From contig OZ076409.1 of assembly GCA_964187785.1 (NCBI GenBank), forward strand, positions 76,014,001-76,078,000: DNA of 64,000 nucleotides. Reading direction: 5' to 3'. A program made the position numbers and the translations under genes. How positions within the stretch are numbered: the first letter of the stretch is position 1; the number at the start of each line of letters is the position of its first letter. Positions 16,198 to 64,000 of the stretch are shown here, one piece after another. The DNA is from Amphiscolops sp. MND2022 (Eukaryota). Under the pieces are notes generated by a model. It had not been told where the DNA came from, ran no database searches, and saw only the letters and a list, made by a program, of their open reading frames with translations.

Positions 16198-16220
16198 TAG
16201 CGGGCAAAATCGTGGCTGAA

Positions 16221-20512: not shown

Positions 20513-22526
20513 CCAGGACTGCGGGCGTCGGGTTAAAGGTATTTGGCATACGTCGTCGAAGGGCATGCCTCGGCATGCCCACAGACGATGGGCGTTGATG
20601 TATGCTATGGGGCGTCGGTTGAAGTTTGAGCAACGGTAAGGTGCGGTTTCAGCTTCAAATATTTAAACGAAGCAAGGTTGTCTACGATTTTTAGTATTGT
20701 TACTAAGGTTCATCCAAGAAAATTGGTTCGATAAAGTGTTTTCAGAGTATTTAGACCACATTAAAAGAGATTAAAAAAAGCATTTCCGACAAATATTCAG
20801 GAAACTCATATCCTAATAACGAAAACTAGACATAGTTTTAGTGCTTGGTATACTCTTGTTGATACTCTAATTGACACTAAAGCATTACAAATGTACCCAA
20901 AAACTTCTTTGTTGCATGAGTCTTGAAGGATAGCCTTTCCAAGTTGACACAAGGCCAACTTGAAAGGCTATCATATTATAACGGTTATGTTTTTTGAGGT
21001 TTTGGTGTTCCACAAACTACTATGAAAAAATTTAAACTCTTCAAAAATGGTCCTTATTAGCCTACAATAGAGATTTATTACACAAAAGTACGTTCTGACA
21101 CATTTTAAAACCCGAAAAACATACTCAGACCCAACGTGTTGGACTTCCGGGGCAATATACCGTTACCCCCCACCATGTAATTGGACTATATTCACCTCTG
21201 GAAGAAATTGAAACACCTAACATGTACTTTATTCGGTTAAATAACAAACATTTTTAATCAAAAAACACAAAATGTTACATTTTTTTGGTCATTTCCGTGG
21301 CCAGGGGGACTTCCGGGTCATCATAACGGTTAATCCGGAATGCTCGTCACACTTCACGTCTTCCATCATATGGTGTCCAAAGTCATATTACCCCTCCTTC
21401 CTGCCCGAAATGGCCTTCAAAAACTATAAAAATCCCATTTTTCACTACATAACGGTCATTTCCGACCTAACGGGCCAACAGGGTGTGACTGAAACTAAAT
21501 CCCCCAACTCGTCTCAATGAGTACTACAATATGTTACCTAACGTTGCCACGCTGGGACCGACACTTTGGGCTCAAAAAGTGACATTTCCGGTCACATAGC
21601 GGTTAGGCTGGGGGCCAAGTCCGTAACGGTGATAGATAGCGGAAATCTGTTCGCCCCCCTGAAGGCACCATATCATGGGTATGAAACCTTGTAGTAGTGA
21701 AGGACACGATAGCTCCACGCGTTCACGAGTTAATTTCACTTCAATGCCCGTTTTACGGTTTTACCCCCAAAAAAAGGAGGCAGTCACCCCATTAGCGGCT
21801 AACGGGTCCGTTCAAAGGGTCCCAAACCACATGTTTCCAATAGGTCCTTGTCTAAACGTACTTTTGATATAAGGCACCCGACGCGCTACTACCACTCCTT
21901 CACACCGGAAATAACGGGGAAAATTGGCGGGGGCCACATTTAAAACCCACATAACGGTCATTTCCCGTCCGAGGGGTTAACCGGGGTCATTAAATTACAT
22001 GTCCCCCACTACGTCCCCAGATGCTCTACAAAACATTACCAGACGACCCCGCACTCAGACAACTCCTTCCCGGTCAAAAAGTGCAATTTCCGGTAAAATA
22101 GCGGTTTGAAACCCCCAAACTACCGTTAATATCTCCCCAAGTTTCAGTCCGATATGGACCAAAATTTGTGTACGTACGCTTCTTGACGTGCCCAACAATA
22201 AATCAGCAAGGCGTTACTGCGCTGGACCAACCAGTCCCGAGTAATTGGCTGTGAAATGCAAAATTTTCAAAAAAACGCTATTTTTTACCCCAAAAACCGT
22301 TATATTGACCCACTTTTCGATTTTTGCCGGGAAAACGTCAGTAGTAAATGTTTCTTAGAATTGTTATAGGAAGCCGTGTGCCAAATTTCAGCCGAATCGT
22401 ACGGCTAGTTTTCGAGATCGCATTTTTTTGACCCGGTCGCGGATAGGCTATTTTTGGTATCTAAGGCTCGCGACAGGACCCGTCTCCCGCGCTCGCAAAT
22501 AAAGGTGGGGAGAAAACCCCGACCAC
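20513..22526. repeat. Array unit 1, divergent family-A variant (2014 bp)
   Basis: Shares the GGGCATGCC core, the GATAGCC stem-loop and internal TAACGG/TTCCGG subrepeats with the ~1.97-kb units, but has a different right end. Confidence 0.8.
20561..20580. promoter_or_regulatory. GGGCATGCCTCGGCATGCCC palindrome matching a p53-family response element (first of 21 copies)
   Basis: Two adjacent RRRCWWGYYY decamers with zero spacer (19/20 match). Present near the start of 21 of the 24 units; function is inferred only. Confidence 0.45.
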
Positions 22527-23796
22527 CTAGCGGAAATTGGGGGCGCCCTGTGGCGCTATTTGGCATACGTCGTCGAAGGGCATGCCTCGGCATGCCCACG
22601 GACGGTGGGCGTTGATGCGAGTATGTGGCTTTGACGTTAGTGATGTTTGAGTAGTAGTAAGCTAAAGAAGTGGTTTTGCTTCTGGAGACATGGTGCAAAG
22701 GAAAACTTTTACCAAACACAGCTATCCGTGTGCAATATTGAGAAAGGTCAAATAAAAACCAATATGGGCCATAGTATCAGGTCTTTGGCGAGTACATTCT
22801 CATCTCCCCCACAAGGGGGGAGATGGAATGTACTCAACTGTTTCGTGATATCGGACGAATAAGACGGTAAGGAAAATTTTCAAAATGGGTCCAAAGACAT
22901 TAAAAGGCTTTGTTCTACTATGCAACGGTGATTGAACAGCTATGGGGATGATTGAACGTATTCCGATGAGTTTTTGATTAGACATGACTTACAAAATCTC
23001 ATTTTTGACATTAAAATCCTATAAGATGCTCACACTCAAAATGTCATAAGTCAACGTCAGATTAAGCTACAGAGTCGTTCTATAGCTCATTTTTCTCGTC
23101 TATTCAAGTACTTTCCACATGCATTCACTTGCAATACTAGTTGTGTGGAAGTTTCCTGACTTTGGGACGCCAGAAGGTAATTTTTACAATTTTTGCGTTT
23201 TTTTGAAATTTTTCTAAGTCCCACAACTTTTTGCCAGGAAGTGCTAGAACGCTGAAACCTCGTATTTAGGGCCAAATGGGTTTGCTCGGCAGAAATTTGG
23301 GCAGGGGTTGCCTCCTGTAAAGGCTCTGGGAAAAATTTTGGGCGAAAATGGCAGAGATAAACTGGTATTTGCAACAAATGCACCAAAATTTTCGTTTATT
23401 TCTCAGTCAATTTTCATCTGATTCACCTCAAAATTCGTCCACGCACTCCTCCGACAATGCGGAGCAATATTGTTGTTATTGTGCGAATCGCTCCGGGCAC
23501 TCTGGAAAAAGTTATGAGCCCTCAAAGTCAAAAAGTTGCGTTTTTTATGTCCATTGGCAACTTTTGTTGCATTTTTGACCAACTTTTTGAAAAAATTCGG
23601 AAAAACGCCAGTAGGAAATAGTTCTTAGGATTTGATTCTAGGCCTGTATGCAAAGTTTCAGGAAAATCTAAGGGGTGGTTTTCGAGATCGTCATTTTTTG
23701 AGCGTGTTTAGGGTAGGTAGTAAAACCGGATAACAGCCACTTGGGGCCCCTCCCCCAATTGGACAGAAAAATGCAGGAAAAAAAGTTCCCGGCCAC
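22527..23796. repeat. Array unit, family B (1270 bp)
   Basis: Diverged homologue at 46848-48126 (shared CATCTCCCCC stem-loop and AAATGTCATAAGTCAACGTCA block). Confidence 0.8.
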
Positions 23797-25186
23797 CTAG
23801 CAAATGTGGGCGCCCTGTAGCGCTATTTGGCATACGTCGTCGAAGGGCATGCCTCGGCATGCCCACAGACGGTGGGAGTTGGTAGGAGTGTGTGATGTCT
23901 AATACTACCCTGATTTGTGTACTTCAGCTTGAAATGGTATTCGTCCGGGTGACACCTCTGGACAGGATTCAGATCACTCAGTTGAACAAATGTCTTTCTT
24001 TTGACAAATTGACTTGAAGGAAAAATATCAAGAGAAAGGAGGAAACAAAATTCCACTATTTTTCGTTTTCAGAACAGATAGCCTTCAAGATTGACCAAAG
24101 GTCAACTTGAAAGGCTATCGGGGGTGATAATGGTGATCACTTTTCCGATCTTCAGCAAAACATGCAACGATGTTAGCTTTTTGCGTGGAAAAAAGCATTC
24201 AAATCAAAAAATAATAATAACTTGACCTTAAAAAGCATTGAAAACTGCATTTACGCTACTTTTTGGACCATTTCCGGTCAAAATTGACCTCTTCCGGTCA
24301 CAGGGGGTTACTTCCGGTATCTGGCAGTGTCAGTTACGACTACGCAGTGAATATATATTTTATGCTCTCACTGGTTCAACTGACTTACGCAACTTGAATG
24401 TGGACCAAACACAAGGAAAATTGATAAAAATACTACCAAAAGGGGGTTTTAAGCCCATTTCCGGTCATAGCGAAACCCATGACTGGACAACACGTGGTCA
24501 TTAAGTTGACCCCAGGTTATACTTCACTTTTGATTTCCTGCTAGTTGCTCGTACAATGCCTCCTTACCAGTGAAAATGGAGACTTCCGGTCTGAAAGTGC
24601 ACAAAAACGCTCATTTCCGGTCAAGGGGGTAATGGGGGTGAACTCAACGCATGTCATCGGATCTATCTCAAAATGCCTAACAAATCGTCAGCAGGGTGTG
24701 CACGCGCTAAATCTACGGCTTTATTACGGAAATTAGCAATCTCCCAAATTTAGGGGTCAAAAATACACGGATGCACCCCTCTATCTCTGTGGGGGGGTAA
24801 TCCGAGGGCAACCAAATTTTCTCAGCATACGTAATGGAAGATGCTGCAACTTTTCGTGCTCCACACTTGATACGCTAGGAACAAAGTATCTATGAGTTTT
24901 TTGCTTGAAAAGTTGAAAATGACAAAAAAAACGCAACAATGCGACAAAAATTGCGCAAAAAGTGCAACAAAGACAAGTTTTTCAGCAACCGTCACTCCTA
25001 CACTTTTTCATTACTCATTGATTAGGGGCCACATGCAAAATTTCAGAGAATTCTAACGGTTAGTTTTTGAGATCTCGATTAAATCGGACACTTCTGGTAT
25101 GTGGTAAATTTCGGTACAGGCTCGGCACGGGGCCCTCCCCAAAGCCTCGCAAACGTCATATACGAGCAAAAAAAATACCCGACCAC
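23797..25186. repeat. Array unit, family C (1390 bp)
   Basis: Near-identical copy of the same length at 49161-50550. Confidence 0.9.
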
Positions 25187-26244
25187 CCAGTGGAGGCAGG
25201 TACCAACTACCAGTAAGGCCTATTCAGACAATACTTGATTGAAACTGAAGTTGGTGCAACTTAAAATTGTAAACTTTAATCGTTTTCTTTTCACAACAAA
25301 CCACCTCAAAAAAAGTTATTTTTTCATCTTGATAATTCTACCAAGCACCTCATTGGAAGCACATAAGTTGCACAGACTTTTATCGTTTGTCGCCAATCTT
25401 CCTCCGAAACGCTTCGCGTTCTCCCGGAACATCGGCGATCTTTCTACATGTCATTTAACAAAAAACATAGAATTCCAACAACTGAGAAAAGATTGCAGTA
25501 ATTTGGGATTAAAACTTTAAAAGTGTAATCATTAACCAAAAATAAAAATTAAATGTGTCAAATTCCCCTAAAAAGTCAGCGTAAGTGCTCGGGTACCTCA
25601 TTTTTGACCTCAAAATGTGACAAAACATCAAAAAAGACGAAAAATCCTTTTTTTCGGAAAAATTCTAAATTTTTCGAATTTTTGTAGAACTTTTGTAGAA
25701 CTTTTTTTTGGCCAAATAAACCAAAATTTTTTCCTCTTTGGATTAAACATAAAACCATTCATTTTTATCCATAGGCACTACCTATTCCATTGGGCACTTC
25801 GGAAGTCATGATAAAAAGTGTCAAAAAATCACCTTTTTTGGTGTATATTTTCTATCATATCTCCCGTTGTATTAGGACCTGGCCAAAAATTTTTGGCCAT
25901 CTTGTAGCCTACTTCATTTGTACCTCACACAAAAAGTTTCGGCCTATTGGCTCCAATGGCTGAGGAGCAGCGACTGAAAAGATGCGAAAAATGGGTGATT
26001 TCGACATACATTTGCTCATAACTTCCGTCACAGGGTATGGAGCGAAAAGTGCCAGCAGGAAAAAGTTCTTACATTTTGATTCTATGTCCGCATGCAAAGT
26101 TTGAATAAATTCTAACGGTTCATTTTCGAGATCGTCTCCGTAGACCCCCCCCAACATGTATATTTTTAGCAGGCTATTCTTCAAGCTCGTCACGGGACCC
26201 TACCCGGCCTCGCACTACTCTATGATGGTAAAACACCCGACCAC
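25187..26244. repeat. Array unit, family D (1058 bp)
   Basis: Starts CCAGTGGAGGCA and lacks the GGGCATGCC core. Diverged homologue at 48127-49160. Confidence 0.75.
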
Positions 26245-29034
26245 CTAGCCGCTACCGCTTTAGTGACCTCGCAGGGGCGTGATTTGGCATACGTCGTCGA
26301 AAGGCATGCCTCGGCATGCCTACGGACGGTGGGCGTTGATGTTGGCATGTGGGCGTCGGCTTGAATTACATTATGCGACGGTAAGGAGCGGTTTCACCTT
26401 TGATAAAAAGCATTACAGTTGGTGAAATTTTCAAGCCACTATGAACAGGCATCAGCCAACAATATTTGTTGGAAAATTCGTTTTCCTAAAATGTAGAGCA
26501 CCAACGAAAGAATATAAAAAAATATGTTGTCAAACTTTGTTATCCTATTAAAAGAATCATGTTGAATTTCATCCAACAACGTTAGGAGACATGGTTTTCC
26601 TGATATTCAGTCCACAAATTAAAGGTTGAAAGTTTTTTGTCAAACATTTGTTTCTTACTTATCCTTTTAAAAGAATCATATGAAATTTTTTAACTATGGT
26701 TAAACTTTTGTTGAAGTTCAAATTGGCTATGGATAATAACAAAAACACTCAATCACACTGTCGCTGCGCAGTTGTGAAAGGATAGCCCTTTCAAGTTGAC
26801 ACAAGGTCAACTTGAGGGCTATCATATTGTAACGGTTATTGAGTTAATGGAGTCGAAACTTCAAGCTGATAAAGTGAAAATGTTCAAAGTCTTCAAAAAG
26901 AAACAACAGAGACAATATCGTAGCTATGATCCGCAATTACACGTCGATTGGCACTTCCAAACCAATTTATTATCTTTACTTCCCAACGGGTTGGATTTCC
27001 GTGGCATTTTCCTATTTCTCACCTCATGTTTCCTGTCAAATTCTTTTCTTGAAGCTTTCTGACACCCTGAATGCACTTTGGTTTGATGAAATTACATGTT
27101 TATTCCAACAAAACACAGAAAAGACAAACTTTCTGAAATTTCTCGTGCCACAGCAACTTCAGGGGCATTATAAAGGTCAAGTTCGTACGGTCATCTCACA
27201 ACACCACAATCATCATAAAGTGACCAAAGACCTAATACAGCTACTTCTTGGCTTGAAGGACCTATCGAAAGCAAAAAAAATGTGAAAAAAATTTTTCACT
27301 ACATAACGGTCATTTTCGCTGTTAGTGTGACTTCCGAATCATAATAACGGTTATTTCAGATTGCTTGTTTCACACCAAAACTTTCATTGTATACTGTCCA
27401 AAGACATATTACCGATACTTCCTGCCCTAAATGGCCTTCAAAAAGTATAAAAATTACATTTTTCACTACATAACGGTCGTTTCCGGTCTAACGGGTCAAC
27501 GGGGGGTGACTGAAACTATATCCCCCAACTCGTCTCATTGAGTTCTACATAAAGTTACCTGACGTTCCCACGCTGGGACCAACCCTTTTGGCTCAAAAAA
27601 TGACATTTCCGGTCACATAGCGGTTAGGCTGGGGGGCCAAGTCCGTAACGGTGATATATAGCGGTAATCTGTTTTCCCCCCTGAAGGCACCGTATCATGG
27701 GTATGAAACCTTGTAGTAGTGATGGACACGATTGCTCCACGCGTTCACGAGATATTTACCCCTCAATGCCCGTTTTCCGGTTTTAGCAGTAAAAAAAGGA
27801 GGCGATCACCCTTATAACGGCTAACGGGTTGGGCCAGAGGGTCCCAAACAACATGTTCCCGGTTGGTCCTTGTCTTAACCTACTTTTGATATATGACACC
27901 CGACGCGCTACCCTCACTCCTTCACATCGGAAATAACGGAGAAAGTTGAAGGGGGTCAATTTTAAAACTCACATAACGGTAATTTCCCGTCCGAGGGGTA
28001 AACCGGGGTCGGCAAACTACATGTCCCCCAACACGTCTCTAGATGCTCTACAAAACATTACTTAACGACTCCACTCTCAGACGACTCCTTCCTGGTCAAA
28101 AAGGGCAATTTCCGGTAATATAGCGGTTAGGCTGGGGGGCAAAGTCCGTAACGGTGATAGATAGCGCTGATCTGTTTGCCCCCCTGAAGGCACCATGTCA
28201 TGGGTATGAAACCTTGTAGGAGTGATGGACACGATTGCTCCACGCGTTCACGAGATAATTACACTTTAATGCCCGTTTTACGGTTTTACCACCAAAAAAA
28301 GGAGGCGGTCACCCTATTTCCGGCTAACGGGTCCGTTCAAAGGGTCCCAAACCACATGTTTCTGATAGGTCCTTGTTTAAAGCTACTTTTGATATATAGC
28401 ACTCGACACGCTATTCCGACTCCTTCACACCGGAAATTGCGGGGAAAATTGGAGGGGGCATTTTTGAAACTCACATAACGGTCATTTCCCGTCCGAGGGG
28501 TAAACTGGGGTCGGCAAACTACATGTCCCCCACCACGTCTCCAGATGCTCTACAAAACATTACCAAATGACTCCGCGCTCAGACGACTCCTTCCCGGTCA
28601 AAAAGTGCAATTTCCGGTAAAATAGCGGTTTGGGCGGGGGGCCAAGTCCGTAACGGTGCAAGATAGAAAATTTTTGTTTGGCCCCCCGTACCCACTGCAT
28701 GATGCCCAACAAACCTTTACTAGTGACCGGACCTGCTAAAACGACGGGGGGAAAAGTTATTCACACTTTTATAAATTTTACCCCCTGATTGACCCCTAAC
28801 GGTCGCTCGTGTACCCGTCACAACGAAACCACGGGTATGGAACCTGGTGGGGGGCGACCAGTGCCCAAAATCTGGGTGGGGGCCAAAAAATCATAAACTT
28901 CTGACGGGTGGAATCCGAAATCGGTCTCAAAACATCGAAAAATTTTCATACTACAAGAGTCTTTCAGTACTGAATGTTCGGTAGGGAACCCTACCCTACC
29001 TCACTATATTCTATTGGGGACAGCCCCCCGCCAC
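26245..29034. repeat. Array unit, long family-A variant (2790 bp) with an extra ~500-bp internal subrepeat
   Basis: ATTTCCGGT...AGCGGTT...AAGTCCGTAACGGTG recurs at ~27605, ~28109 and ~28610. Confidence 0.8.
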
Positions 29035-32000
29035 CTAGCCCGGGATGTACGGGCGTCGTTTGATAAGGATTTGTCATACGTCGTCGAAGGGCATGCCTCG
29101 GCATGCCCACAGACGGTGTGCGTTGATGTAAAGTGTGTGGCGTTGACGTTAATTAAACTAAAATATGACGTTTCAGCTTCCATAATGAAATGTAATATTC
29201 AATTTGAACTTTTATAAATCTGTTACAAACATTCCAAAGAATACCATTTGTTAGGTAAATAGGTTTCCTGGCATTTAGGACACATTTTGTATGGAAAAAA
29301 CCATTTTTTTCAACAATTTGCTCACTATGATTCTAATAACGGAATCATGACGGCATAGTTTTTGTCGTTGATACACTGTTGATGAAGCTCTAATTGGTAC
29401 TAATGCAATATATACCTACCCAAAAACACTCTTGATTAACGATTTCAGAAGGATAGCGCTTCCAAGTTGACACCAGGCCAACTTGAAAGGCTATCATAAG
29501 GTAACGGTTATGTTGGTTGAGGTTTCGGAGTCTCTGAAACTATATGGAAAAACTTTAATTTTTAAAAATAGTCCACAAGAGTCGAAAAAATTACGCCGAA
29601 AGACATTTTAAAACCAAAAAACCTATCCTGTCTCCAACGGTTTGACTTCCGGTGCTATATACCGTTACCCCCCACAAGGTTTCATGACTATGTTCACTAC
29701 TGTAGACCGTCGAAACACCTAACAGATACTTTTATCTACAAAATACAAAACATTTGTACCCAATAGACACAAAATTTGACCATTTCCGGTCGTTTACGGT
29801 ACCAGGGGGTCTTTAGGGTCAACATAACGGTTATTTCCGAATGCTCGCCTCACGTCCTCCCTTACCTCATATAGTGTCCAAGCACCTATTACCACTCCTT
29901 CCGCACCTAAATACACTTGAAAAAGTATAAAAATTGCAATTTTACCCACATAACGGTCATTTCCGGTCCCAAGGGGTAACGGGGGTGACTGAAACTATAT
30001 CCCTCAACTCGTCTCATTGAGTACTACAATAAGTTACCTAACGTTCCCCGGCTGGGACCGACCCTTTGGGCTCAAAAAGTGACATTTCCGGTCACATAGC
30101 GGTTAGGCTGGGGGGCCAAGTCGGTAACGGTGATAGATAGCGGAAATCTGTTTGCCCCCCTGAAGGCACCATATCATGGGTATGAAACCTTGTAGTAGTG
30201 ATGGACACGATTGCTCCACGCGTTCACGAGATATTTACCCCCCAATGCCCATTTTACGGTTTTAGCACTAAAAAAAGGAGGCGGAAGCCCCATTTCCCGC
30301 TAACGGGTTGGTCCATGGGGTCCCAAACTACATGTTTCCGATAGGTCCTTGTCTAAACCTACTTTTGTTATATAACACCCGACGCGCTACTCCCACTCCT
30401 TCACACCGGAAATAGCGGTAAAACGTGGAGGGGGGCATTTTTCACGCTCATATAACGGTCATTTCCCGTCCGGGGGGTAAATTGAGGTTGGCAAACTACT
30501 TGTCCCCCACTTCGTCTCAAGGCCGTCCCCAATACATCACCTAACGACCCCGCGCTCAGACGACTCCTTCCGGGTCAAAAACCTGCGTTTCCGGAAAAAT
30601 AACGGTTTGAGCGGGGGGGTACTTGGAGATAGCTTCAAGATAGAAAAATTTGGTTTGGACCTTCGGGGCCCCTGCAACACGGTCAAGAAACTTTTAGCAG
30701 GGTTCCAAAGTTTTAAATCAACAGAAAAAAAGTTATGTGGCCCAATATGAATTTTACCCCTAAAATGACCCCCTAACGGTCGCCCGTGTGGCCAGAAAAA
30801 AATTTTCCGGGGTATGGAACCCGGTGGGGGGCGCTAATTTTCGGAAAATCTGGTGGGGGCCGCTCCAACTTTAAAATCCTATGGTTAGATCACGAGATCC
30901 CGAAATTTTTGCAAGATTTCCTATCGATAGCTATTAGAGTTAAAATCGGATTCAGGACCCTACCCGAATCCTCCAATATATTTGTTGGGGTTACCCCCCC
31001 GCACCTAGCCCGGGATGTACGGGCGTCGTTAGGTATGTATTTGGTATACGTCGTCGAAGGGCATGCCTCGGCATGCCCACAGACGGTGGGCGTTGATGTA
31101 AAGTGTGTGGCGTTGACGTTAATTAAACTAAAATATGACGTTTCAGCTTCCATAATGAAATGTAATATTCCATTTGAACTTTTATAAATCTGTTACATAC
31201 ATTCCAATTAATACCATTTGTTAGGTAAATAGGTTTCCTGGCATTTAGGACACATTTTGTATGGAAAAAACCATTTTTTTCAACAATTTGCTCACTATGA
31301 TTCTAATAACGGAATCATGACGGCATAGTTTTTGTCGTTGATACACTGTTGATGAAGCTCTAATTGGTACTAATGCAATATATACCTACCCAAAAACACT
31401 CTTGATTAACGATTTCAGAAGGATAGCGCTTCCAAGTTGACACCAGGCCAACTTGAAAGGCTATCAAAATGTAACGGTTATGTTGGTTGAGGTTTCGGAG
31501 TCTCTGAAACTATATGGAAAAACTTTAATTTTTAATAATAGTCCATAATAGTCGACAAAGGTACGCCGAAAGACATTTTCAAACCAAAAACCTATCCTGT
31601 GTCCAACGGTTTGGACTTCCGGTGCTATATACCCCGTTACCCCCCACAAGGTTTCATGACTATGTTCACTACTGCAGACCGTCGAAACACCTAATAGATA
31701 CTTTTATCTACAAAATACCCAACATTTGTACACAATAGACACAAAATTTGACCATTTCCGGTCGTTTACGGTACCAGGGGGACTTTAGGGTCAACATAAC
31801 GGTTATTTCCGAATGCTCGCCTCACGTCCTTCCTTACATCATACAGTGTCCAAGCACCTATTACCACTCCTTCCGCATCTAAATGCCCTTGAAATAGGAC
31901 AAAAATGGCAATTTTTTTCACATAACCGTCATTTCCGGTCGTAAGGGGTAACGGGGGGTGACTGAAACTATGTCCCCCAACTCGTCTCAATGAGTACTAC

Positions 32001-50550: not shown

Positions 50551-53500
50551 CTAGCCCGGCATGTACGGGCGTCGTTTGATATGGATTTGTCATACGTCGT
50601 CGAAGGGCATGCCTCGGCATGCCCACAGACGGTGTGCGTTGATGTAAAGTGTGTGGCGTTGACGTTAATTAAACTAAAATATGACGTTTCAGCTTCCATA
50701 ATGAAATGTAATTATCAATTTGAACTTTTATAAATCTGTTACAAACATTCCAATTAATACCATTTGTTAGGTAAATAGGTTGCCTGGCATTTAGGACACA
50801 TTTTGTATGGAAAAAACCATTTTTTCAACAATTTGCTCACTATGATTCTAATAACGGAATCATGACGGCATAGTTTTTGTCGTTGATACACTGTTGATGA
50901 AGCTCTAATTGGTACTAATGCAATATATACCTACCCAAAAACACTCTTGATTAACGATTTCAGAAGGATAGCGCTTCCAAGTTGACACCAGGCCAACTTG
51001 AAAGGCTATCATAAGGTAACGGTTATGTTGGTTGAGGTTTCGGAGTCTCTGAAACTATATGGAAAAACTTTAATTTTTAAAAATAGTCCACAAGAGTCGG
51101 AAAAATTACGCCGAAAGACATTTTAAAACCAAAAAACCTATCCTGTCTCCAACGTTTTGACTTCCGGTGCTATATACCGTTACCCCCCACAAGGTTTCAT
51201 GACTATGTTCACTACTGTAGACCGTCGAAACACCTAATAGATACTTTTATCTACAAAATACAAAACATTTGTACCCAATAGACACAAAATTTGACCATTT
51301 CCGGTCGTTTACGGTACCAGGGGGACTTTAGGGTCAACATAACGGTTATTTCCGAATGCACGCCTCACGTCCTCCCTTACCTCATATAGTGTCCAAGCAC
51401 CTATTACCACTCCTTCCGCACCTAAATACACTTGAAAAAGTATAAAAATTGCAATTTTACCCACATAACGGTCATTTCCGGTCCCAAGGGGTAACGGGGG
51501 GTGACTAAAACTATATCCCCCAACTCGTCTCATTGAGTACTACAATAAGTTACCTAACGTTCCCCGGCTGGGACCGACCCTTTGGGCTCAAAAAGTGACA
51601 TTTCCGGTCACATAGCGGTTAGGCTGGGGGGCCAAGTCGGTAACGGTGATAGATAGCGGAAATCTGTTTGCCCCCCTGAAGGCACCATATCATGGGTATG
51701 AAACCTTGTAGTAGTGATGGACACGATTGCTCCACGCGTTCACGAGATATTTACCCCTCAATGCCCATTTTACGGTTTTAGCACTAAAAAAAGGAGGCGG
51801 AAGCCCCATTTCCCGCTAACGGGTTGGTCCAGGGGGTCCCAAACTACATGTTTCCGATAGGTCCTTGTCTAAACCTACTTTTGTTATATAACACCCGACG
51901 CGCTACTCCCACTCCTTCACACCGGAAATAGCGGTAAAACGTGGAGGGGGGCATTTTTCACGCTCATATAACGGTCATTTCCCGTCCGGGGGGTAAATTG
52001 AGGTTGGCAAACTACTTGTCCCCCACTTCGTCTCAAGGCCGTCCCCAATACATCACCTAACGACCCCGCGCTCAGACGACTCCTTCCGGGTCAAAAACCT
52101 GCGTTTCCGGAAAAATAACGGTTTGAGCGGGGGGGTACTTGGAGATAGCTTCAAGATAGAAAAATTTGGTTTGGACCTCCGGAGCCCTTGCATTACGGTC
52201 AAGAAACTTTTAGCAGGGTTCCAAAGTTTTAAATCAACAGAAAAAAAGTTATGTGGACCAATATGAATTTTACCCCTAAAATGACCCCCTAACGGTCGCC
52301 CGTGTGGCCAGAAAAAAATTTTCCGGGGTATGGAACCCGGTGGGGGGCGATCAATTTTGGAAAATCTGGTGGGGGCCGCTCCAACTTTAAAATCCTATGG
52401 TTAGATCACGAGATCCCGAAATTTTTGCAAGATTTCCTATCGATAGCTATTAGAGTTGAAATCGGATTCAGGACCCTACCCGAATCCTCCAAAAATTTTG
52501 TTGGGGTTACCCCCCCGCACCTAGCCCGGCATGTACGGGCGTCGTTTGATATGGATTTGTCATACGTCGTCGAAGGGCATGCCTCGGCATGCCCACAGAC
52601 GATGGGCGTTGATGTAAAGTGTGTGGCGTTGACGTTAATTAAACTAAAATATGACGTTTCAGCTTCCATAATGAAATGTAATATTCAATTTGAACTTTTA
52701 TAAATCTGTTACAAACATTCCAATTAACACCATTTGTTAGGTAAATAGGTTTCCTGGCATTTAGGACACATTTTGTATGGAAAAAACCATTTTTTTCAAC
52801 AATTTGCTCACTATGATTCTAATAACGGAATCATGACGGCATAGTTTTTGTCGTTGATACACTGTTGATGAAGCTCTAATTGGTACTAATGCAATATATA
52901 CCTACCCAAAAACACTCTTGATTACCGATTTCAGAAGGATAGCGCTTCCAAGTTGACACCAGGCCAACTTGAAAGGCTATCATAAGGTAACGGTTATGTT
53001 GGTTGAGGTTTCGGAGTCTCTGAAACTATATGGAAAAACTTTAATTTTTAAAAATAGTCCACAAGAGTCGAAAAAATTACGCCGAAAGACATTTTAAAAC
53101 CAAAAAACCTATCCTGTCTCCAACGGTTTGACTTCCGGTGCTATATACCGTTACCCCCCACAAGGTTTCATGACTATGTTCACTACTGTAGTCCGTCGAA
53201 ACACCTAATAGATACTTTTATCTACAAAATACAAAACATTTGTACCCAATAGACACAAAATTTGACCATTTCCGGTCGTTTACGGTACCAGGGGGACTTT
53301 AGGGTCAACATAACGGTTATTTCCGAATGCTCGCCTCACGTCCTCTCTTACCTCATATAGTGTCCAAGCACCTATTACCACTCCTTCCGCACCTAAATAC
53401 ACTTGAAAAAGTATAAAAATTGCAATTTTACCCACATAACGGTCATTTCCGGTCCCAAGGGGTAACGGGGGGTGACTGAAACTATATCCCCCAACTCGTC

Positions 53501-56500
53501 TCACTGAGTACTACAATAAGTTACCTAACGTTCCCCGGCTGGGACCGACCCTTTGGGCTCAAAAAGTGACATTTCCGGTCACATAGCGGTTAGGCTGGGG
53601 GGCCAAGTCCGTAACGGTGATAGATAGCGGAAATCTGTTTGCCCCCCTGAAGGCACCATATCATGGGTATGAAACCTTGTAGTAGTGATGGACACGATTG
53701 CTCCACGCGTTCACGAGATATTTACCCCTCAATGCCCATTTTCCGTTTTTAACCGTAAAAAAAGGAGGCGGAAGCCCCATTTCCCGCTAACGGGTTGGTC
53801 CAGGGGGTCCCAAACCACATGTTTCCGATAGGTCCTTGTCTAAACCTACTTTTGATATATGGCACCCGACGCGCTACTCCCACTCCTTCACACCGGAAAT
53901 AGCGGTAAAACGTGGAGGGGGGCATTTTTCACGCTCATATAACGGTCATTTCCCGTCCGGGGGGTAAATTGAGGTTGGCAAACTACTTGTCCCCCACTTC
54001 GTCTCAAGGCCGTCCCCAATACATCACCTAACGACCCCGCGCTCAGACGACTCCTTCCGGGTCAAAAACCTGCGTTTCCGGAAAAATAACGGTTTGAGCG
54101 GGGGGGTACTTGGAGATAGCTTCAAGATAGAAAAATTTGGTTTGGACCTTCGGGGCCCCTGCAACACGGTCAAGAAACTTTTAGCAGGGTTCCAAAGTTT
54201 TAAATCAACAGAAAAAAAGTTATGTGGCCCAATATGATTTTTACCCCTAAAATGACCCCCTAACGGTCGCCCGTGTGGCCAGAAAAAAATTTTCCGGGGT
54301 ATGGAACCCGGTGGGGGGCGCTAATTTTCGGAAAATCTGGTGGGGGCCGCTCCAACTTTAAAATCCTATGGTTAGATCACGAGATCCCGAAATTTTTGCA
54401 AGATTTCCTATCGATAGCTATTAGAGTTAAAATCGGATTCAGGACCCTACCCGAATCCTCCAATATATTTGTTGGGGTTTCCCCCCCGCACCTAGCTGCT
54501 ACCGCGCTCGGGGGTGTTGTGTTGGAGGAATTTGGTATACGTCGTCGAAGGGCATGCCTCGGCATGCCCACAGACGGTGGGCGTTGATGTAAAGTATGTG
54601 GCGTTGACGTTAATTAATTTATAATTTGACGTTTCAGCTTCCATAATGAAACGTAATATTCAATTTGAACTTTTATTAGCTGTTATATACAATCCAATCA
54701 ATACCATTTGTTTGGTAAAGAGTTTTTCTGGCATTTAGGACACATTTGAAATGTAAAAAATCAACTTTCTCAATATTTTGTTAACTAATATTCTAATAAC
54801 GGAATCATCACGACATAGTTTTTATCGTTGGCAAACTTTTCTTGAAGCTCTAATTGATTCTAAAGTAAAACAAACATACTCAAAAACACACTTGATTAAT
54901 GATTTTTGAAGGATAGCCCTTCCAAGTTGACACCAGGCCAACTTGAAAGGCTATCATAAGGAAACGGTTATGTTGGTTGAGGTTTCGGAGTCTCTGAAAC
55001 TATATGGAAAAACTTTATTTTTCAAAAATAGTCCATAATAGTCAACAAAAGTAGGCCGAAAGACATTTTAAAACCAAAAAACTTATCCTGTCTCCAACGG
55101 TTTGCACTTCCGGTGCTATATACCGTTACCCCCCACAAGGTTTCATGACTATGTTCACGACTGCAGACCGTCGAAACACCTAATAGGCACTGTTATCCAT
55201 AAAACACCAAACATTTGTACCCTAAAAACACGACATTTGACCATTACGGGTCACTTCCGGTACCAGGGGGACTTTAGGGTCAACATAACGGTTATTTCCG
55301 AATGCTCGCCTCACGTCCTCCCTATCATCATATAGTGTCCAAGCACCTATTACCACTCCTTCCGCACCTAAATACCCTTCAAAAAGTACAAAAAATGCCA
55401 ATTTACCCACATAACGGTCATTTCCGGTCCCAAGGGGTAACGGGGGGTGACTGAAACTATGTCCCCCAACTCGTCTCATTGAGTACTACAATAAGTTACC
55501 TAACGTTGCCCGGCTAGGATCGACCCTTTGGGCTCAAAAAGTGCAATTTCCGGTCACATAGCGGTTAGGCTGGGGGGCCAAGTTGGTAACGGTGATAGAT
55601 AGCGGTAATCTGTTTGCCCCCCTGAAGGCACCATATCATGGGTATGAAACCTTGTAGTAGTGATGGACACGATTGCTCCACGCGTTCACGAGATATTTAC
55701 CCCTCAATGCCCGTTTTCCGGTTTTAACCGTAAAAAAACGGGCCGGAAGCCCCATTTCTCGCTAACGGGTTGGTCCAGGGGGTCCCAAACTACATGTTTC
55801 CGATAGGTCCTTGTCTGAACCTACTTTTGATATATGGCACCCGACGCGCTACTCCCACTCCTTCACACCGGAAAAAGCGGTAAAACGTGGAGGGGGGCAT
55901 TTTTCCCGCTCATATAACGGTCATTTCCCGTCCGGGGGGTAAACTGGGGTCGGCAAACTGCATGTCCCCCACTTCGTCTCAAGGCCGTCCCCAAAACATC
56001 ACCTAACGACCCCGCGCTCAGACGACTCCTTCCGGGTCAAAAACCTGCGTTTCCGGAAAAATAACGTTTTGGGCGGGGGGGTACTTGGAGATAGCTTCGA
56101 GATAGAAAAATTTGGTTTGGACCTCCGGAGCCACTGCAACACGGTCAAGAAACTTTTAGCAGGGTCCCAAAGTTTTAAATCAACAGAAAAAAAGTTATGT
56201 GGCCCAATATGAATTTTACCCCTAAAATGACCCCCTAACGGTCGCCCGTGTGGCCAGAAAAAAATTTTCCGGGGTATGGAACCCGGTGGGGGGCGCTAAT
56301 TTTCGGAAAATCTGGTGGGGGCCGCTCCAACTTTAAAATCCTATGGTTAGATCACGAGATCCCGAATCCTATCCAAATTTTCTTAACGAAAGCTGGCAGC
56401 ACTGAACTCGGATTCAGGACCCTACCCGAATCCTCCAAAAATTTTGTTGGGGTTTCCCCCCCGCACCTAGCCCGGCATGTACGGGCGTCGTTTGATAAGG

Positions 56501-59500
56501 ATTTGTCATACGTCGTCGAAGGGCATGCCTCGGCATGCCCACAGACGGTGTGCGTTGATGTAAAGTGTGTGGCGTTGACGTTAATTAAACTAAAATATGA
56601 CATTTCAGCTTCCATAATGAAATGTAATATTCAATTTGAACTTTTATAAATCTGTTACAAACATTCCAATTAATACCATTTGTTAGGTAAATAGGTTTCC
56701 TGGCATTTAGGACACATTTTGTATGGAAAAAACCATTTTTTTCAACAATTTGCTCACTATGATTCTAATAACGGAATCATGACGGCATAGTTTTTGTCGT
56801 TGATACACTGTTGATGAAGCTCTAATTGGTACTAATGCAATATATACCTACCCAAACACACTCTTGATTAACGATTTCAGAAGGATAGCGCTTCCAAGTT
56901 GACACCAGGCCAACTTGAAAGGCTATCATAAGGTAACGGTTATGTTGGTTGAGGTTTCGGAGTCTCTGAAACTATATGGAAAAACTTTAATTTTTAAAAA
57001 TAGTCCACAAGAGTCGAAAAAATTACGCCGAAAGACATTTTAAAACCAAAAAACCTATCCTGTCTCCAACGGTTTGACTTCCGGTGCTATATACCGTTAC
57101 CCCCCACAAGGTTTCATGACTATGTTCACTACTGTAGACCGTCGAAACACCTAATAGATACTTTTATCTACAAAATACAAAACATTTGTACCCAATAGAC
57201 ACAAAATTTGACCATTTCCGGTCGTTTACGGTACCAGGGGGACTTTAGGGTCAACATAACGGTTATTTCCGAATGCTCGCCTCACGTCCTCCCTTACCTC
57301 ATATAGTGTCCAAGCACCTATTACCACTCCTTCCGCACCTAAATACACTTGAAAAAGTATAAAAATTGCAATTTTACCCACATAACGGTCATTTCCGGTC
57401 CCAAGGGGTAACGGGGGGTGACTGAAACTATATCCCCCAACTCGTCTCATTGAGTACTACAATAAGTTACCTAACGTTCCCCGGCTGGGACCGACCCTTT
57501 GGGCTCAAAAAGTGACATTTCCGGTCACATAGCGGTTAGGCTGGGGGGCCAAGTCGGTAACGGTGATAGATAGCGGAAATCTGTTTGCCCCCCTGAAGGC
57601 ACCATATCATGGGTATGAAACCTTGTAGTAGTGATGGACACGATTGCTCCACGCGTTCACGAGATATTTACCCCTCAATGCCCATTTTACGGTTTTAGCA
57701 CTAAAAAAAGGAGGCGGAAGCCCCATTTCCCGCTAACGGGTTGGTCCAGGGGGTCCCAAACTACATGTTTCCGATAGGTCCTTGTCTAAACCTACTTTTG
57801 TTATATAACACCCGACGCGCTACTCCCACTCCTTCACACCGGAAATAGCGGTAAAACGTGGAGGGGGGCATTTTTCACGCTCATATAACGGTCATTTCCC
57901 GTCCGGGGGGTAAATTGAGGTTGGCAAACTACTTGTCCCCCACTTCGTCTCAAGGCCGTCCCCAATACATCACCTAACGACCCCGCGCTCAGACGACTCC
58001 TTCCGGGTCAAAAACCTGCGTTTCCGGAAAAATAACGGTTTGAGCGGGGGGGTACTTGGAGATAGCTTCAAGATAGAAAAATTTGGTTTGGACCTTCGGG
58101 GCCCCTGCAACACGGTCAAGAAACTTTTAGCAGGGTTCCAAAGTTTTAAATCAACAGAAAAAAAGTTATGTGGCCCAATATGAATTTTACCCCTAAAATG
58201 ACCCCCTAACGGTCGCCCGTGTGGCCAGAAAAAAATTTTCCGGGGTATGGAACCCGGTGGGGGGCGAATAACTTTGGAAAATCTGGTGGGGGCCGCTCCA
58301 ACTTTAAAATCCTATGGTTAGATCACGAGATCCCGAAATTTTTGCAAGATTTCCTATCGATAGCTATTAGAGTTAAAATCGGATTCAGGACCCTACCCGA
58401 ATCCTCCAATATCTTTGTAGGGGTTACCCCCCCGCACCTAGCCCGGCATGTACGGGCGTCGTTTGGGTATGTATTTGGTATACGTCGTCGAAGGGCATGC
58501 CTCGGCATGCCCACAGACGGTGGGCGTTGATGTAAAGTGTGTGGCGTTGACGTTAATTAAACTAAAATATTACGTTTCAGCTTCCATTTTGAATCGTAAT
58601 AATTAATTTGAAATTTTATAAATCTGTTACATACATTCCAATCAATACCATTTGTTAGTTAAATAGGTTTCCTGGCATTTAGGACACATTTTATATGGAA
58701 AAAATCAATTTTCTCAACAATTTGCTAACTATTATTCTAATAACGGAATCATCACGACATAGTTTTTGTCGTTGGCAAACTTTTCTTGAAGCTCTAATTG
58801 ATTCTAAAGTGATACAAACATACCCAAAAACACACCTGATTGACGATTTTTGAAGGATAGCCCTTCCAAGTTGACACCAGGCCAACTTGAAAGGCTATCA
58901 TGAGGTAACGGTTATGTTGGTTGAGGTTTCGGAGTCTCTGAAACTATATGGAAAAACTTTAATTTTTAAAAATAGTCCTTAATAGTCAACAAAAGTACGT
59001 CGAAAGACATTTTAAAATCAAAAAACCTATCCTGTCTCCAACGGTTTGGATTTCCGGTGCTATATACCGTTACCCCCCACAAGGTTTCATGACTATGTTC
59101 ACTACTGCAAACCGTCGAAACACCTAATAGATACTTTTATTTACAAAATACCAAACATTTGTACCCAATAGACACAAAATTTGACCATTTCCGGTTGTTT
59201 ACGGTACCAGGGGGACTTTAGGGTCAACATAACGGTTATGTCCGAATGCTCGCCTCACGTCCTCCCTTACCTCATATAGTGTCCAAGCCCCTATTACCAC
59301 TCCTTCCGCATCTAAATGCCCTTCAAATAGGACAAAAATGGCAAATTTACTCACATAACGGTCATTTCCGGTCCCAAGGGGTAACGGGGGGTGACTGAAA
59401 CTATGTCCCCCAACTCGTCTCAATGAGTACTACAATAAGTTACCTAACGTTCCCTGGCTGGGACCGACCCTTTGGGCTCAAAATATGACATTTCCGGTCA

Positions 59501-62500
59501 CTTAACGGTTAGGCTGGGGGGCCAAGTCCGTAACGGTGATAGATAGCGGAAATCTGTTTGCCCCTCTGAAGGCACCATATCATGGGTATGAAACCTTGTA
59601 GGAGTGAAGGACACCGTAGCTCCACGCGTTCACGAGATATTTACCCCTCAATGCCCATTTTCCGTTTTTAACCGTAAAAAAACGGGCCGGAAGCCCCATT
59701 TCCTGCTAACGGGTTGGTCCAGGGGGTCCCAAACCACATGTTTCCGATAGATCCTTGTCTAAACCTACTTTTGATATATGGCACCCGACGCGCTACTCCC
59801 ACTCCTTCACACCGGAAATAGCGGTAAAACGTGGAGGGGGGCATTTTTCCCGCTCAAATAACGGTCATTTCCGGTCCGGGGGGTAAACTGGGGTTGGCAA
59901 ACTGCATGTCCCCCACTTCGTCTCAAGGCCGTCCCCAATACATCACCTAACGACCCCGCGCTCCGACGACTCCTTCCGGGTCAAAAACCTGCGTTTCCGG
60001 AAAAATAACGTTTTGGGCGGGGGGGTACTTGGAGATAGCTTCAAGATAGAAAAATTTGGTTTGGACCTCCGGGGCCCCTGCAACACGGTCAAGAAACTTT
60101 TAGCAGGGTCCCAAAGTTTTAAATCAACAGAAAAAAAGTTATGTGGCCCAATATGAATTTTACCCCTAAAATGACCCCCTAACGGTCGCCCGTGTGGCCA
60201 GAAAAAAATTTTCCGGGGTATGGAACCCGGTGGGGGGCGCTAATTTTCGGAAAATCTGGTGGGGGCCGCTCCAACTTTAAAATCCTATGGTTAGATCACG
60301 AGATCCCGAATCCTATCCAAATTTTCTTAACGAAAGCTGGCAGCACTGAACTCGGATTCAGGACCCTACCCGAATCCTCCAAAAATTTTGTTGGGGTTTC
60401 CCCCCCGCACCTAGCCCGGCATGTACGGGCGTCGTTAGAAGGGATTTGCCATACGTCGTCGAAGGGCATGCCTCGGCATGCCCACAGACGGTGGGCGTTG
60501 ATGTAAAGTGTGTGGCGTTGACGTTAATTAAACTAAAATATTACGTTTGAGCTTCCATAATGAAACGTAATAATCAATTTGAACTTTTATAACTCTGTTA
60601 CATACATTCCAATCAATACCATTTGTTAGTTAAATAGGTTTCCTGGCAATTAGGACACATTTTATATGGAAAAAATCAATTTTCTCAACAATTTGCTAAC
60701 TTTTATTCTAATAACGGAATCATCACGACATAGTTTTTGTCGTTGGCAAACTTTTCTTGAAGCTCTATTTGATTCTAAAATGATACAAACATACCCAAAA
60801 ACACACTTGATTGACGATTTTTGAAGGATAGCCCTTCCAAGTTGACACCAGGCCAACTTGAAAGGCTATCATGAGGTAACGGTTATGTTGGTTGAGGTTT
60901 CGGAGTCTCTAAAACTATATGGAAAAACTTTAATTTTTAAAAGTAGTCCTTAATAGTCGACAAAAGTACGCCGAAAGACATTTTAAAACCAAAAAACCTA
61001 TCCTGTCTCCAACGGTTTGGACTTCCGGTGCTATATACCGTTACCCCCCACAAGGTTTCATGACTATGTTCACTACTGCAGACCGTCGAAACACCTAATA
61101 GATACTTTTATCTACAAAATACCAAACATTTGTACCCTATAAAGAGAAAATTTTGACCATTTCCGGTCGTTTACGGTACCAGGGGGACTTTGGGGTCAAC
61201 ATAACGGTTATTTCCGAATGCTCGCCTCATATCCTCCCTTACCTCATATAGTGTCCAAGCACCTATTACCACTCCTTCCGCATCTAAATGCCCTTCAAAT
61301 AGGACAAAAACGGCAAATTTACTCACATAACGGTCATTTCCGGTCTTAAGGGGTAACGGGGGGTGACTGAAACTATGTCCCCCAACTCATCTCAATGAGT
61401 ACTACAATAAGTTACCTAACGTTCCCTGGCTGGGACCGACCCTTTGGGCTCAAAAAGTGACATTTCCGGTCACTTAGCGGTTAGGCTGGGGGGCCAAGTC
61501 CGTAACGGTGATAGATAGCGGAAATCTGTTTGCCCCCCTGAAGGCACCATATCATGGGTATGAAACCTTGTAGTAGTGAGGGACACCGTAGCTCCACGCG
61601 TTCACGAGATATTTACCCCTCAATGCCCATTTTCCGTTTTTAACCGTAAAAAAACGGGCCGGAAGCCCCATTTCCTGCTAACGGGTTGGTCCAGGGGGTC
61701 CCAAACCACATGTTTCCGATAGATCCTTGTCTAAACCTACTTTTGATATATGGCACCCGACGCGCTACTCCCACTCCTTCACACCGGAAATAGCGGTAAA
61801 ACGTGGAGGGGGACATTTTTGCCGCTCATATAACGGTAATTTCCCGTCCGGGGGGTAAACTGAGGTTGGCAAACTACATGTCCCCCACTTCGTCTCAACG
61901 CCGTCCCCGAAACATCACCTAACGACCCCGCGCTCAGACGACTCCTTCCGGGTCAAAAACCTGCGTTTCCGGAAAAATAACGGTTTGAGCAGGGGGGTAC
62001 TTGGAGATAGCTTCAAGATAGAAAAATTTGGTTTGGACCTCCGGAGCCACTGCAACACGGTCAAGAAACTTTTAGCAGGGTACCAAAGTTTTAAATCAAC
62101 AGAAAAAAAGTTATGTGGTCCAATATGAATTTTACCCCTAAAATGACCCCCTAACGGTCGCCCGTGTGGCCAGAAAAAAATTTTCCGGGGTATGGAACCC
62201 GGTGGGGGGCGATCAATTTTGGAAAATCTGGTGGGGGCCGCTCCAACTTTAAAATCCTATGGTTAGATCACGAGATCCCGAAATTTTTGCAAGATTTCCT
62301 ATCGATAGCTATTAGAGTTGAAATCGGATTCAGGACCCTACCCGAATCCTCCAAAATTTTTGTTGGGGTTACCCCCCCGCACCTAGCTGCTACCGCGGGT
62401 GGGTGTAGATATTAAAGGTGTTTGTTATACGTCGTCGAAGGGCATGCCTCGGCATGCCCACAGACGGTGGGCGTTGATGTAAAGTATGTGGCGTTGACGT

Positions 62501-64000
62501 TAATTAAACTAAAACGTGAGGTTTCAGCTTCCATAATGAGACCTATTGAAAATATTGATCTTCTTTTTCAATGTTAGTTAGTTTTAGTCAATACCATTTA
62601 TTATTTTATTCAATTTGGTGGCATTTGGACACATTTTGAATGGGAAAAATCAACTTTGTAAACAATTTGTTAACTGTTATTCTTATAACGGAATTATCAC
62701 GACATTGTTTTGCCGTTGGCAAAATGTTGATGAAGCTCTTATTGGTACTAATGCAACATATACCTACCCAAAAACACTCTTGCTTAACGATTTTAGAAGG
62801 ATAGCCCTTCCAAGTTGACACCAGGTCAACTTGAAAGGCTATCAAAATGTAACGGTTATGTTGACTGAAGCATTGGAGGTCCCTGAAACTAATGTGAAAA
62901 AATTTTATTTCCCAAAAAAGTCCGTAATAGTTGATATTTTGACGATTCAACCCACAAAACTACGCCTAAAGACATTTTGAAACCAAAAAACCTATTCTGT
63001 GACCAACGGTTTGGACTTCCGGTGCTATATACCGTTACCCCCCACAAGGTTTCATGACTATGTTCACTTCTGGAGACCTTTAAAACACCTTCCAGGTACT
63101 TTTATCTATAAAATACCAAACATTTGTACCCTATGAACACAAAATGTGGCCATTTCCGGTCGTTAACGGTACCAGGGGGACTTTGGGGTCAACATAACGG
63201 TTATTTCCGAATGCTCGCCTCACGTCCTCCCTTACCTCATATAGTGTCCAAGCACCTATTACCACTCCTTCCGCACCTAAATACACTTCAAATAATATAA
63301 AAATTGCAAATTTACCCACATAACGGTCATTTCCGGTCTCAAGGGGTAACGGGGGTGACTGAAACTAGATCCCCCAACTCGTCTCAATGAGTACTACAAT
63401 ATGTTACCTATCGTTGCCCGGCTAGGATCGACCCTTTGGGCTCAAAAAGTGCAATTTCCGGTCACATAGCGGTTAGGCTGGGGGGCCAAGTCGGTAACGG
63501 TGATAGATAGCGGTAATCTGTTTGCCCCCCTGAAGGCACCATATCATGGGTATGAAACCTTGTAGTAGTGATGGACACGATTGCTCCACGCGTTCACGAG
63601 ATATTTACCCCTCAATGCCCGTTTTCCGGTTTTAACAGCAAAAAAAGGAGGCGATCACCCTAATAGCGGCTAACGGGTTGGGTCAGGGGGTCCGAAACCA
63701 CATGTTTCCGGTTGGTCCTTGTCTAAACCTACTTTTGATATATGGCACCCGACACCCTACTCCCACTCCTTCACACCGGAAATTGCGGGGAAAATTGAAG
63801 GGGGGCATTTTTAAAACTCACATAACGGTCATTTCCCGTCCGAGGGGTAAACTGGGGTCGGCAAACTACATGTCCCCCAACACGTCTCCAGATGCACTAC
63901 AAAACATTACCAAACGACTCCGTGCTCAGACGACTCCTTCCCTGTCAAAAAAGGCAATTTCCGGCAAAATAACGGTTGGGCCGGGGGGGCAAGTCCGTAA
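50551..64000. repeat. Seven tandem family-A units (last one truncated by the window end)
   Basis: Junction spacings 1970, 1971, 1975, 1971, 1973, 1972, then a partial unit. Confidence 0.95.

Follow-up and report, generated by a model that had tools for sequence, protein, structure and literature searches.

Non-coding units of a mixed array in Amphiscolops sp. are Helitron-like elements that appear to stack at their own junctions

How units that differ widely in their interiors come to be joined, time after time, at one precise junction is the question raised by a 64,000-bp stretch of the genome of Amphiscolops sp. MND2022 (the window; positions 76,014,001-76,078,000 of contig OZ076409.1, here C1, in the 1.07-Gb assembly GCA_964187785.1), which from position 20513 onwards is occupied by an array of such units. 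The original prediction, made from the letters alone, had described four shuffled families of non-coding units, A to D, and proposed that they are individually mobile and served by an enzyme acting in trans. The feature is real, and the array consists of Helitron-like elements (HLEs) that fail the tests for both HLE1 and HLE2 on ends and target. Very probably, the units are non-autonomous members of this group that insert behind CTNG, are moved in trans by a Rep-helicase protein (RepHel) carrying a GIY-YIG domain, and are stacked by joining at origins already resident in the array.

Read on the minus strand, every array unit has the form 5'-GTG…CTRG-3'. The array comprises 32 units in 60,511 bp, extends past the window to position 81,023 (window numbering) and contains no N. 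The pattern ACC[CT]AG occurs 26 times on the plus strand of the window; two of these matches lie outside the array, and the other 24 (20513 to 62383) are all unit boundaries. The units had been said to start with CYAG and to end in CAC, and 23 of the 24 boundaries do read CAC|CYAG, the left edge being GAC|CCAG. The predicted order, A'-B-C-D-A''-A x9-B'-D'-C-A x7, is correct, as is the description of the two C copies as near-identical (99% global identity) with different neighbours on both sides and of B/B' (69%) and D/D' (66%) as strongly diverged; A' and A are 75% identical. The families, whose interiors had been described as largely unrelated, are indeed only 33-61% identical to one another, but a block of ~100 bp near one unit end is common to them, with 70-80% identity. 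A hairpin block of 55-95 bp near the opposite end is common to A, B and C at about 90-97% and not present in D, B' and D'. The units are non-coding as claimed, the scan of the window for open reading frames (ORFs) having returned no long ORF within them. When C copies with different neighbours were compared without presupposing a motif, homology to four of the five other C copies stopped exactly after the common CYAG, and to the fifth at +10.

Other identities for the array were considered and rejected. Against a small-RNA gene array, Rfam gave no credible match in the 16 kb scanned (18,000-34,000), where all three matches fell far below gathering scores, and the conserved block, which D, B' and D' lack, is located within the breakpoints. 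A short-period satellite is at odds with Tandem Repeats Finder, which gave only five short arrays. The long ORFs at 11,795-18,221, candidates for an enzyme inside the window, belong to an unrelated gag/reverse transcriptase/integrase retrotransposon.

The ends seen in the window recur throughout the genome. CYAG follows 812 of 817 A-family ends, with no match for reversed-pattern controls. About 40 nt inside the 5' end, within a stem-loop, all families have the motif GGRDAGGGYCC, which is found at positions 38-48 in 134 of 156 units and only once in 258 kb of unit interiors; it is likely to be the transposase binding site. In the fetched regions, all 213 motif-anchored 5' ends start GTGC or GTGG and all 213 stand directly after CTNG; genome-wide, CTNG precedes 1,165 of 1,181 GTGGYC-type 5' ends, and the target counts are 3,764 for CTRG versus 46 for CTYG. 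Among 59 listed 3' ends, 51 are CTAG and 8 CTGG, in a library that was built from CTRG ends, and a few units end in CTTG or CTCG. A strong hairpin lies ~50-70 nt from the 3' end in A, B and C types and is weak or absent in D and B' types and in one autonomous family described below. Since 32 distinct outer 3' flanks begin with GT (13), AT (8), TT (6), GA (4) or CT (1), the target can be written as CTNG^DT or CTNG^GA, which includes the elements' own joint, CTRG^GT. The target is in this way a copy of the end of the element itself, as in bacterial IS91, and the site is regenerated by each insertion.

Empty sites are clean. The window array splits a ~380-bp host repeat at CTCG^GTCG, and all 19 uninterrupted paralogues of this repeat read through GCGAC^CGAG (one of them CCAG), with neither duplication nor loss. 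It is the host repeat's own 9-bp duplication that flanks the whole array, and the same type of duplication is found in four of the paralogues (L095, L096, L101, L103). The search for the host repeat gave 1,586 candidates, 40 of which were scored. Among 21 insertions tested, the gap was 0 in seven, the window array included, and the offset was 10 in one, 13 having no paralogue in hand; a target-site duplication (TSD) is thus missing, with gap 0 in 7 of 8 insertions that have a paralogue. A 4-bp TSD was considered for one solo copy with CTTG at both ends and rejected, as the same CTTG end type occurs in an array (L184) and the end tetranucleotide is family-specific. The claim that units insert at an existing junction is supported, with the refinement that solo copies and small arrays also sit at ordinary CTNG sites on many contigs, the solo copies again without a TSD. 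For one old solo family, only five copies were found.

The enzyme predicted to act in trans has a counterpart in the same arrays, and it is of the type named as the first candidate, an HUH Rep-helicase. Units of 12–17 kb with the same ends encode a protein of ~2,400 aa with an HUH Rep, a Pif1 helicase and a GIY-YIG domain, together with an RPA-like protein. One such unit of 13,675 bp, located in a mixed array (C1:23,994,513-24,008,187), carries on its GTG...CTAG strand an ORF of 2,377 aa with Pfam matches to Helitron_like_N, PIF1 and a C-terminal GIY-YIG and with the Rep motifs FVTFTCN, HYH and YxxxY, and its product matches Pif1 helicases and Helraiser among solved structures; this is the family with the weak or absent 3' hairpin. 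The GIY-YIG tail retains the Tyr, Gly, Arg, His, Glu pattern and is presumably like that of SLX1. A genome search with the Rep part gave 111 listed matches from 105 of 489 candidates scored; 53 of those 111 are in frames that run for 2,100 aa or more without a stop, identity ranging from 31 to 100%, and the RepHels measure 2,100-2,600 aa. Seven autonomous families of 12-17 kb read GTG...CTRG, the CTRG 3' end being on the RepHel coding strand, and the window units have terminal blocks in common with them. One autonomous family is present as three copies on C1, C6 and C8, with a near-identical protein and different neighbours.

In the autonomous families examined, a second ORF of ~330 aa lies downstream of RepHel. 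Its structural model (pLDDT 85) matches RPA and other OB-fold binders of single-stranded DNA with E values down to 1e-5 and whole-chain TM scores below 0.3, and on this modelling the product is predicted to be an RPA-like protein. Two autonomous families (L047:4362-5027, minus strand, and the L075/L076 region) have a third ORF of ~220 aa; the two products are 47% identical and have no Pfam match.

The elements are numerous. A 23-nt part of the common hairpin block has 2,916 exact matches genome-wide; clustering gave 28 groups for 155 units of four arrays and 51 groups for 350 units of all the regions fetched. The same families return in different orders between arrays, and the 13 occurrences of C-type 5' ends stand behind 11 different neighbour ends. 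This shuffling of single units between arrays bears out the view that they are individually mobile, and the comparison to an integron holds as an analogy only, the units being transposons of the copy-and-paste type and not gene cassettes. The majority of copies are concentrated in a few large blocks. Of 20 samples of 5 kb, spaced ~300 kb apart over C1:70.2-76.6 Mb, the 18 inner samples (C1:70.8–76.3 Mb) are 93-100% covered by these elements, with 5' ends on the plus strand only in 17 and no 5' end in one, and the two outer samples have no element coverage. The samples point to a co-oriented block of ~6 Mb on C1. The window array, also inside this block, is oriented the other way and sits among other elements in a stretch of ~127 kb. 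In arrays at C1:3.48-3.64 Mb and 37.9-38.17 Mb, D-type families occupy a different part from A- or B-type families, a zoning that possibly reflects waves of activity. Further clusters of autonomous copies occur at C2:102-104 Mb, C3:2.5-3.6 Mb, C7:65.2 Mb and C9:3.4 Mb, some of them near contig ends.

A copies that are neighbours resemble each other no more than random pairs do (10.8% difference between adjacent copies versus 10.5% for all pairs, p = 0.63), so the units seem to have arrived singly. A copies frequently have their nearest relatives in distant arrays, and one copy differs by 0.2% from another at a distance of 38 Mb. The effect of adjacency was not significant in any of 11 family-by-array tests (lowest p = 0.061), and only 4 of 77 adjacent same-family pairs are less than 1% apart. 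Within the array, junction use is nearly exclusive: there are 31 used junctions and, of the same pattern, 77 same-strand and 116 opposite-strand sites without an insertion. CTNG|GTG and the 5' motif are the only features of a junction common to all families, the 3' hairpin not being universal. The outermost 5' units have a shorter median distance to their nearest copy than the outermost 3' units (0.012, n = 20, versus 0.023, n = 16; p = 0.043) and are also younger than internal units (p = 0.012), while solos are oldest, with a distance of 0.12. Because unused sites outnumber junctions, because only CTNG|GTG and the 5' motif are universal, and because the 5'-edge units are younger, we infer that the enzyme targets resident origins. 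Three 5' fragments end at an internal CTTG that is followed by a new unit, with no continuation in the fetched stretch, which would fit premature termination.

By analogy with the chemistry of Helraiser and IS91, RepHel would bind the 5' motif, nick after CTRG and peel off one strand until it stops at the next CTNG, releasing a circle with a CTRG|GTG joint. As the anatomy of the arrays suggests, a rare insertion at an ordinary CTNG would seed an array, and afterwards each resident 5' end would be both a perfect target and a site of RepHel binding and nicking; it is this double role that, in our proposal, would make all families stack in one orientation. The new copy would go in front of the resident copy, which would explain similar stacks that appear to fill ~6 Mb of one chromosome. 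The RPA-like protein may cover the strand as it is peeled off, and a branched intermediate might be cut by the GIY-YIG domain.

Several observations weigh against this scheme. The polarity signal is modest and depends on the copies fetched, most 5' edges having come from a CTYG-biased search. The outermost 3' units do not differ from internal units (p = 0.41), and the 3'-edge unit of the window array is young (0.2%), a misfit for a simple model in which the founder remains at the 3' edge, except if the array as a whole is recent. Within arrays, families are grouped in zones, A copies are block-by-block mosaics, and 3' tails are common to different families, so that recombination or duplication on a local scale is also at work. 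A small number of insertions are nested in other units. Finally, the evidence comes from sequence analysis.

These points bear on the choice between explanations. Elements with a CTNG target could have formed arrays from rolling-circle concatemers and unequal crossing-over, scrambled afterwards by homologous recombination in their common terminal blocks and with no active targeting. Concatemers are the origin to which tandem Helitron arrays of plants have been ascribed in the available parts of two reports (PMC11934779, PMC5876387), and this account would suit the four near-identical adjacent pairs, the clumping of families and the mosaic A copies. We regard it as unlikely: families with as little as 4-10 bp in common around the joint are still joined exactly there, the adjacency tests show neighbours no more alike than chance, and the 12-17-kb autonomous units stand single among short ones with different neighbours. 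Much less probable is insertion at any CTNG, with the arrays reflecting regional targeting or survival in safe heterochromatin. The solo and small-array insertions at ordinary CTNG on many contigs and the concentration of most copies in a few large blocks agree with it, but it is largely refuted by the unused sites within the array, and all 18 samples over 5.5 Mb show a single orientation or no 5' end, nested insertions being few.

The other enzyme type suggested originally, a tyrosine recombinase of Crypton or integron type, would move units at a CCACCYAG core by double-strand recombination, with the RepHel elements as passengers. Absence of base gain or loss and a regenerated site would also fit such conservative recombination, yet RepHel and the RPA-like ORF are on all long units examined, the 3' end has the same relation to the RepHel coding strand as in Helraiser, and the rising copy number speaks of copy-and-paste, which makes this account a very poor candidate; no tyrosine recombinase was found in the three ORFs of the single long unit scanned, the genome not having been searched for one. 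The chance that the unit order is an assembly artefact is close to nil. Two 200-N gaps lie near the array, and the order is that of the assembly, but there is no gap inside the array, which is flanked by the two host-repeat halves and the 9-bp duplication, and differences between its copies reach 20%. In a contig of run X1, an A end is followed by the start of another family exactly at the junction (one contig, possibly from the same source), and a metagenome contig (L171) has the junction with a distant RepHel.

Where, then, do elements that stack at their own origins through a RepHel belong among known transposons? An HUH Rep with two tyrosines (Y2) upstream of a Pif1 helicase, the lack of a TSD, and non-autonomous copies sharing the autonomous termini mark them as Helitron-like. 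The Rep region matches 482 representative proteins; of 33 long homologues scanned, 23 have a GIY-YIG domain and none has DUF6570, which is also missing from the array element. DUF6570 is a marker of HLE2 according to the part of the source available (PMC11417382) and was found in five of six comparator ORFs of the same genome, the sixth being HLE1-like. Besides the array elements, the genome thus holds one HLE1-type and several DUF6570-bearing HLE2-type Helitron families (L146-L151). Trees of Rep plus helicase were calculated with FastTree (75 rows) and IQ-TREE (26 rows) and rooted at the midpoint, leaving out proteins below 1,600 aa and nine rows without a full helicase. In both, a long branch with full support separates five comparators from all array elements and homologues. 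The array element scores 41 bits with Helitron_like_N versus 199 for the HLE1-type row. It weighs against the separation that the tree comparators are one HLE1-type and four HLE2-type rows, all of this genome, and that long-branch warnings were given. The RepHels of the array elements thus likely form a clade outside HLE1 and HLE2, a sequence-based placement that is thinly sampled because of the few comparators, the midpoint root, the omitted rows and these warnings.

Compared with HLE1, as far as the available text of the published accounts goes (Helraiser; PMC4778049, PMC5876387, PMC11417382), the array elements are alike in having Rep and Pif1 in one ORF, a CTRR-type 3' end, no TSD, an RPA-like gene downstream of RepHel and head-to-tail joints, and with Helraiser they share a CTRG-type 3' end on the RepHel coding strand. 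They differ in their 5' end (GTG, not TC), their target (CTNG^DT, not A^T), their C-terminal GIY-YIG, their length of 2,100-2,600 aa and their separate branch, and their arrays mix dozens of families and are not concatemers. With HLE2 (Helentron, Helitron2), again on partial text (PMC11417382, PMC5148889), they have in common a large RepHel and a 5' stem-loop; OTU occurs in some homologues, GIY-YIG has been reported once, in a moss HLE2, and occasional self-insertion is described in Fusarium. In contrast to HLE2, neither the element nor the 33 homologues have DUF6570, the target is not T^T, the base before the insertion being G, and the array elements lie on a separate branch from the four DUF6570-bearing elements of the same genome.

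The Helitrons of Paramecium, compared by description only and on the available part of the report (PMC13085455), likewise form a clade outside HLE1 and HLE2 with strict orientation, and their 3' end (CCAA) matches the repeat proposed as insertion site. Their target is a telomeric repeat at chromosome ends, in contrast to CTNG and the elements' own junctions here; no telomeric repeats were seen at the flanks of array elements, which are varied, and GIY-YIG is not mentioned in that part of the report. IS91, in the accessible text (PMC13181058), also has an HUH transposase, no TSD and circle junctions, and its target CTTG (also CTCG) next to the origin end and terminal cleavage at CTCG parallel the likeness between target (CTNG) and terminal (CTRG) tetranucleotides here. 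Unlike the array elements, it is bacterial and without a helicase, megabase mixed arrays are not mentioned in that text, and its transposase is held to have an origin independent of Helitrons (PMC10288648, seen in part). Replitrons differ in having a Y1 Rep without helicase, against the two-tyrosine Rep and helicase of the array element. Tandem accretion at a regenerated site is known from CTX/RS1/TLC at dif, SXT-type integrative and conjugative elements, and Drosophila HeT-A/TART/TAHRE, which build mixed, co-oriented head-to-tail arrays one unit at a time. Those systems use recombinases or a reverse transcriptase and a fixed host site, unlike here, where any CTNG can seed an array.

The group extends beyond this genome. 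A metagenome scan returned 11 loci. Contig L171 ends in CTAG|GTGG followed by the motif hairpin of the next unit, and contig L168 starts within the motif hairpin. The identity of their RepHels to the Amphiscolops families compared does not exceed 34% and 43%, respectively, and the other nine loci show no terminus. Over 236 bp, the 5' non-coding part of L168 has 72% identity to that of an autonomous family (L084/L157) whose protein is distant. In the full-text literature searched, with subscription journals mostly outside it, there was no description of mixed-family Helitron arrays, of a CTNG target or of a RepHel-GIY-YIG clade. HELIANO, in its available text, mentions HLEs left unclassified in 19 genomes and a single GIY-YIG, in a moss HLE2; members of the clade may be present in its supplements or in Repbase. 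On the whole, we think it fairly probable that this is an undescribed, widespread RepHel-GIY-YIG clade whose own origin is its preferred integration site, so that dozens of families, with transposases down to ~30% identity, share a self-regenerating site and build oriented mixed arrays of up to ~6 Mb unit by unit.

Megabase repeat blocks would then arise by a mechanism distinct from unequal crossing-over and concatemer replication and thus by a third route to DNA on the scale of satellites, which would be served by a eukaryotic, sequence-defined single-strand integrase. Such blocks would keep a readable record of insertion order, and self-stacking may let transposons multiply without harming genes. 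The target choice of Helitrons is poorly understood; here the target, a likely binding motif and many intact enzymes are defined, which opens target selection to direct tests. Serial gene stacking could also profit from a RepHel that inserts units of 1-17 kb seamlessly at a defined junction and regenerates it.

Table 1. Array units and flanking features of the window
Feature	Position	Strand	Remarks
Left copy of 9-bp target duplication of host repeat	20258..20266	.	Right copy 8/9 identical, beyond far array end
Left part of ~380-bp dispersed repeat, like a miniature inverted-repeat transposable element (MITE), split by array	20267..20512	.	Remainder after 81,023 (window numbering)
A' unit, 2,014 bp, outermost 3' unit, ends CTGG-3' against flank GT	20513..22526	-	0.2% from copy in another array
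Example of conserved 3' subterminal block, hairpin with 8-bp stem	20545..20580	-	Common to A, B, C and several autonomous families
B unit, 1,270 bp, non-autonomous	22527..23796	-	5' ~800 bp 69-82% identical in local blocks to autonomous families
C unit, 1,390 bp	23797..25186	-	First C copy
D unit, 1,058 bp, ends CTGG-3', without hairpin block	25187..26244	-	
A'' unit, 2,790 bp, internal duplications	26245..29034	-	
Nine A units, 1,970-1,993 bp	29035..46847	-	Adjacent copies 3-13% apart
Example of 5' motif GGRDAGGGYCC, ~40 nt inside 5' end, in stem-loop	46798..46808	-	
B' unit, 1,279 bp	46848..48126	-	5' part 83-88% identical to autonomous families
D' unit, 1,034 bp	48127..49160	-	
Second C unit	49161..50550	-	99% identical to first C; neighbours differ on both sides
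Seven A units, last cut by window end	50551..64000	-	Array runs on 17 kb

Other features were noted around the array. The retrotransposon at 11,795-18,221 (minus strand) is of the long terminal repeat type and in pieces, with Gag (zf-CCHC), reverse transcriptase and integrase ORFs and a 200-N gap at 17,649-17,848. A 232-bp direct repeat, 99% identical between its copies at 1,014-1,245 and 17,417-17,648, ends at this assembly gap. On the plus strand, ORFs of 392 and 260 aa (6,012-7,190 and 7,606-8,388) have no Pfam match, the first containing a Cys/His cluster. Outside the window, at C1 ~76,120,000-76,132,600 (L065, L066), there are Polinton-like ORFs, polymerase-, integrase-, ATPase- and capsid-like as judged by eye only, and the next array begins inside one of them, at CTTG.

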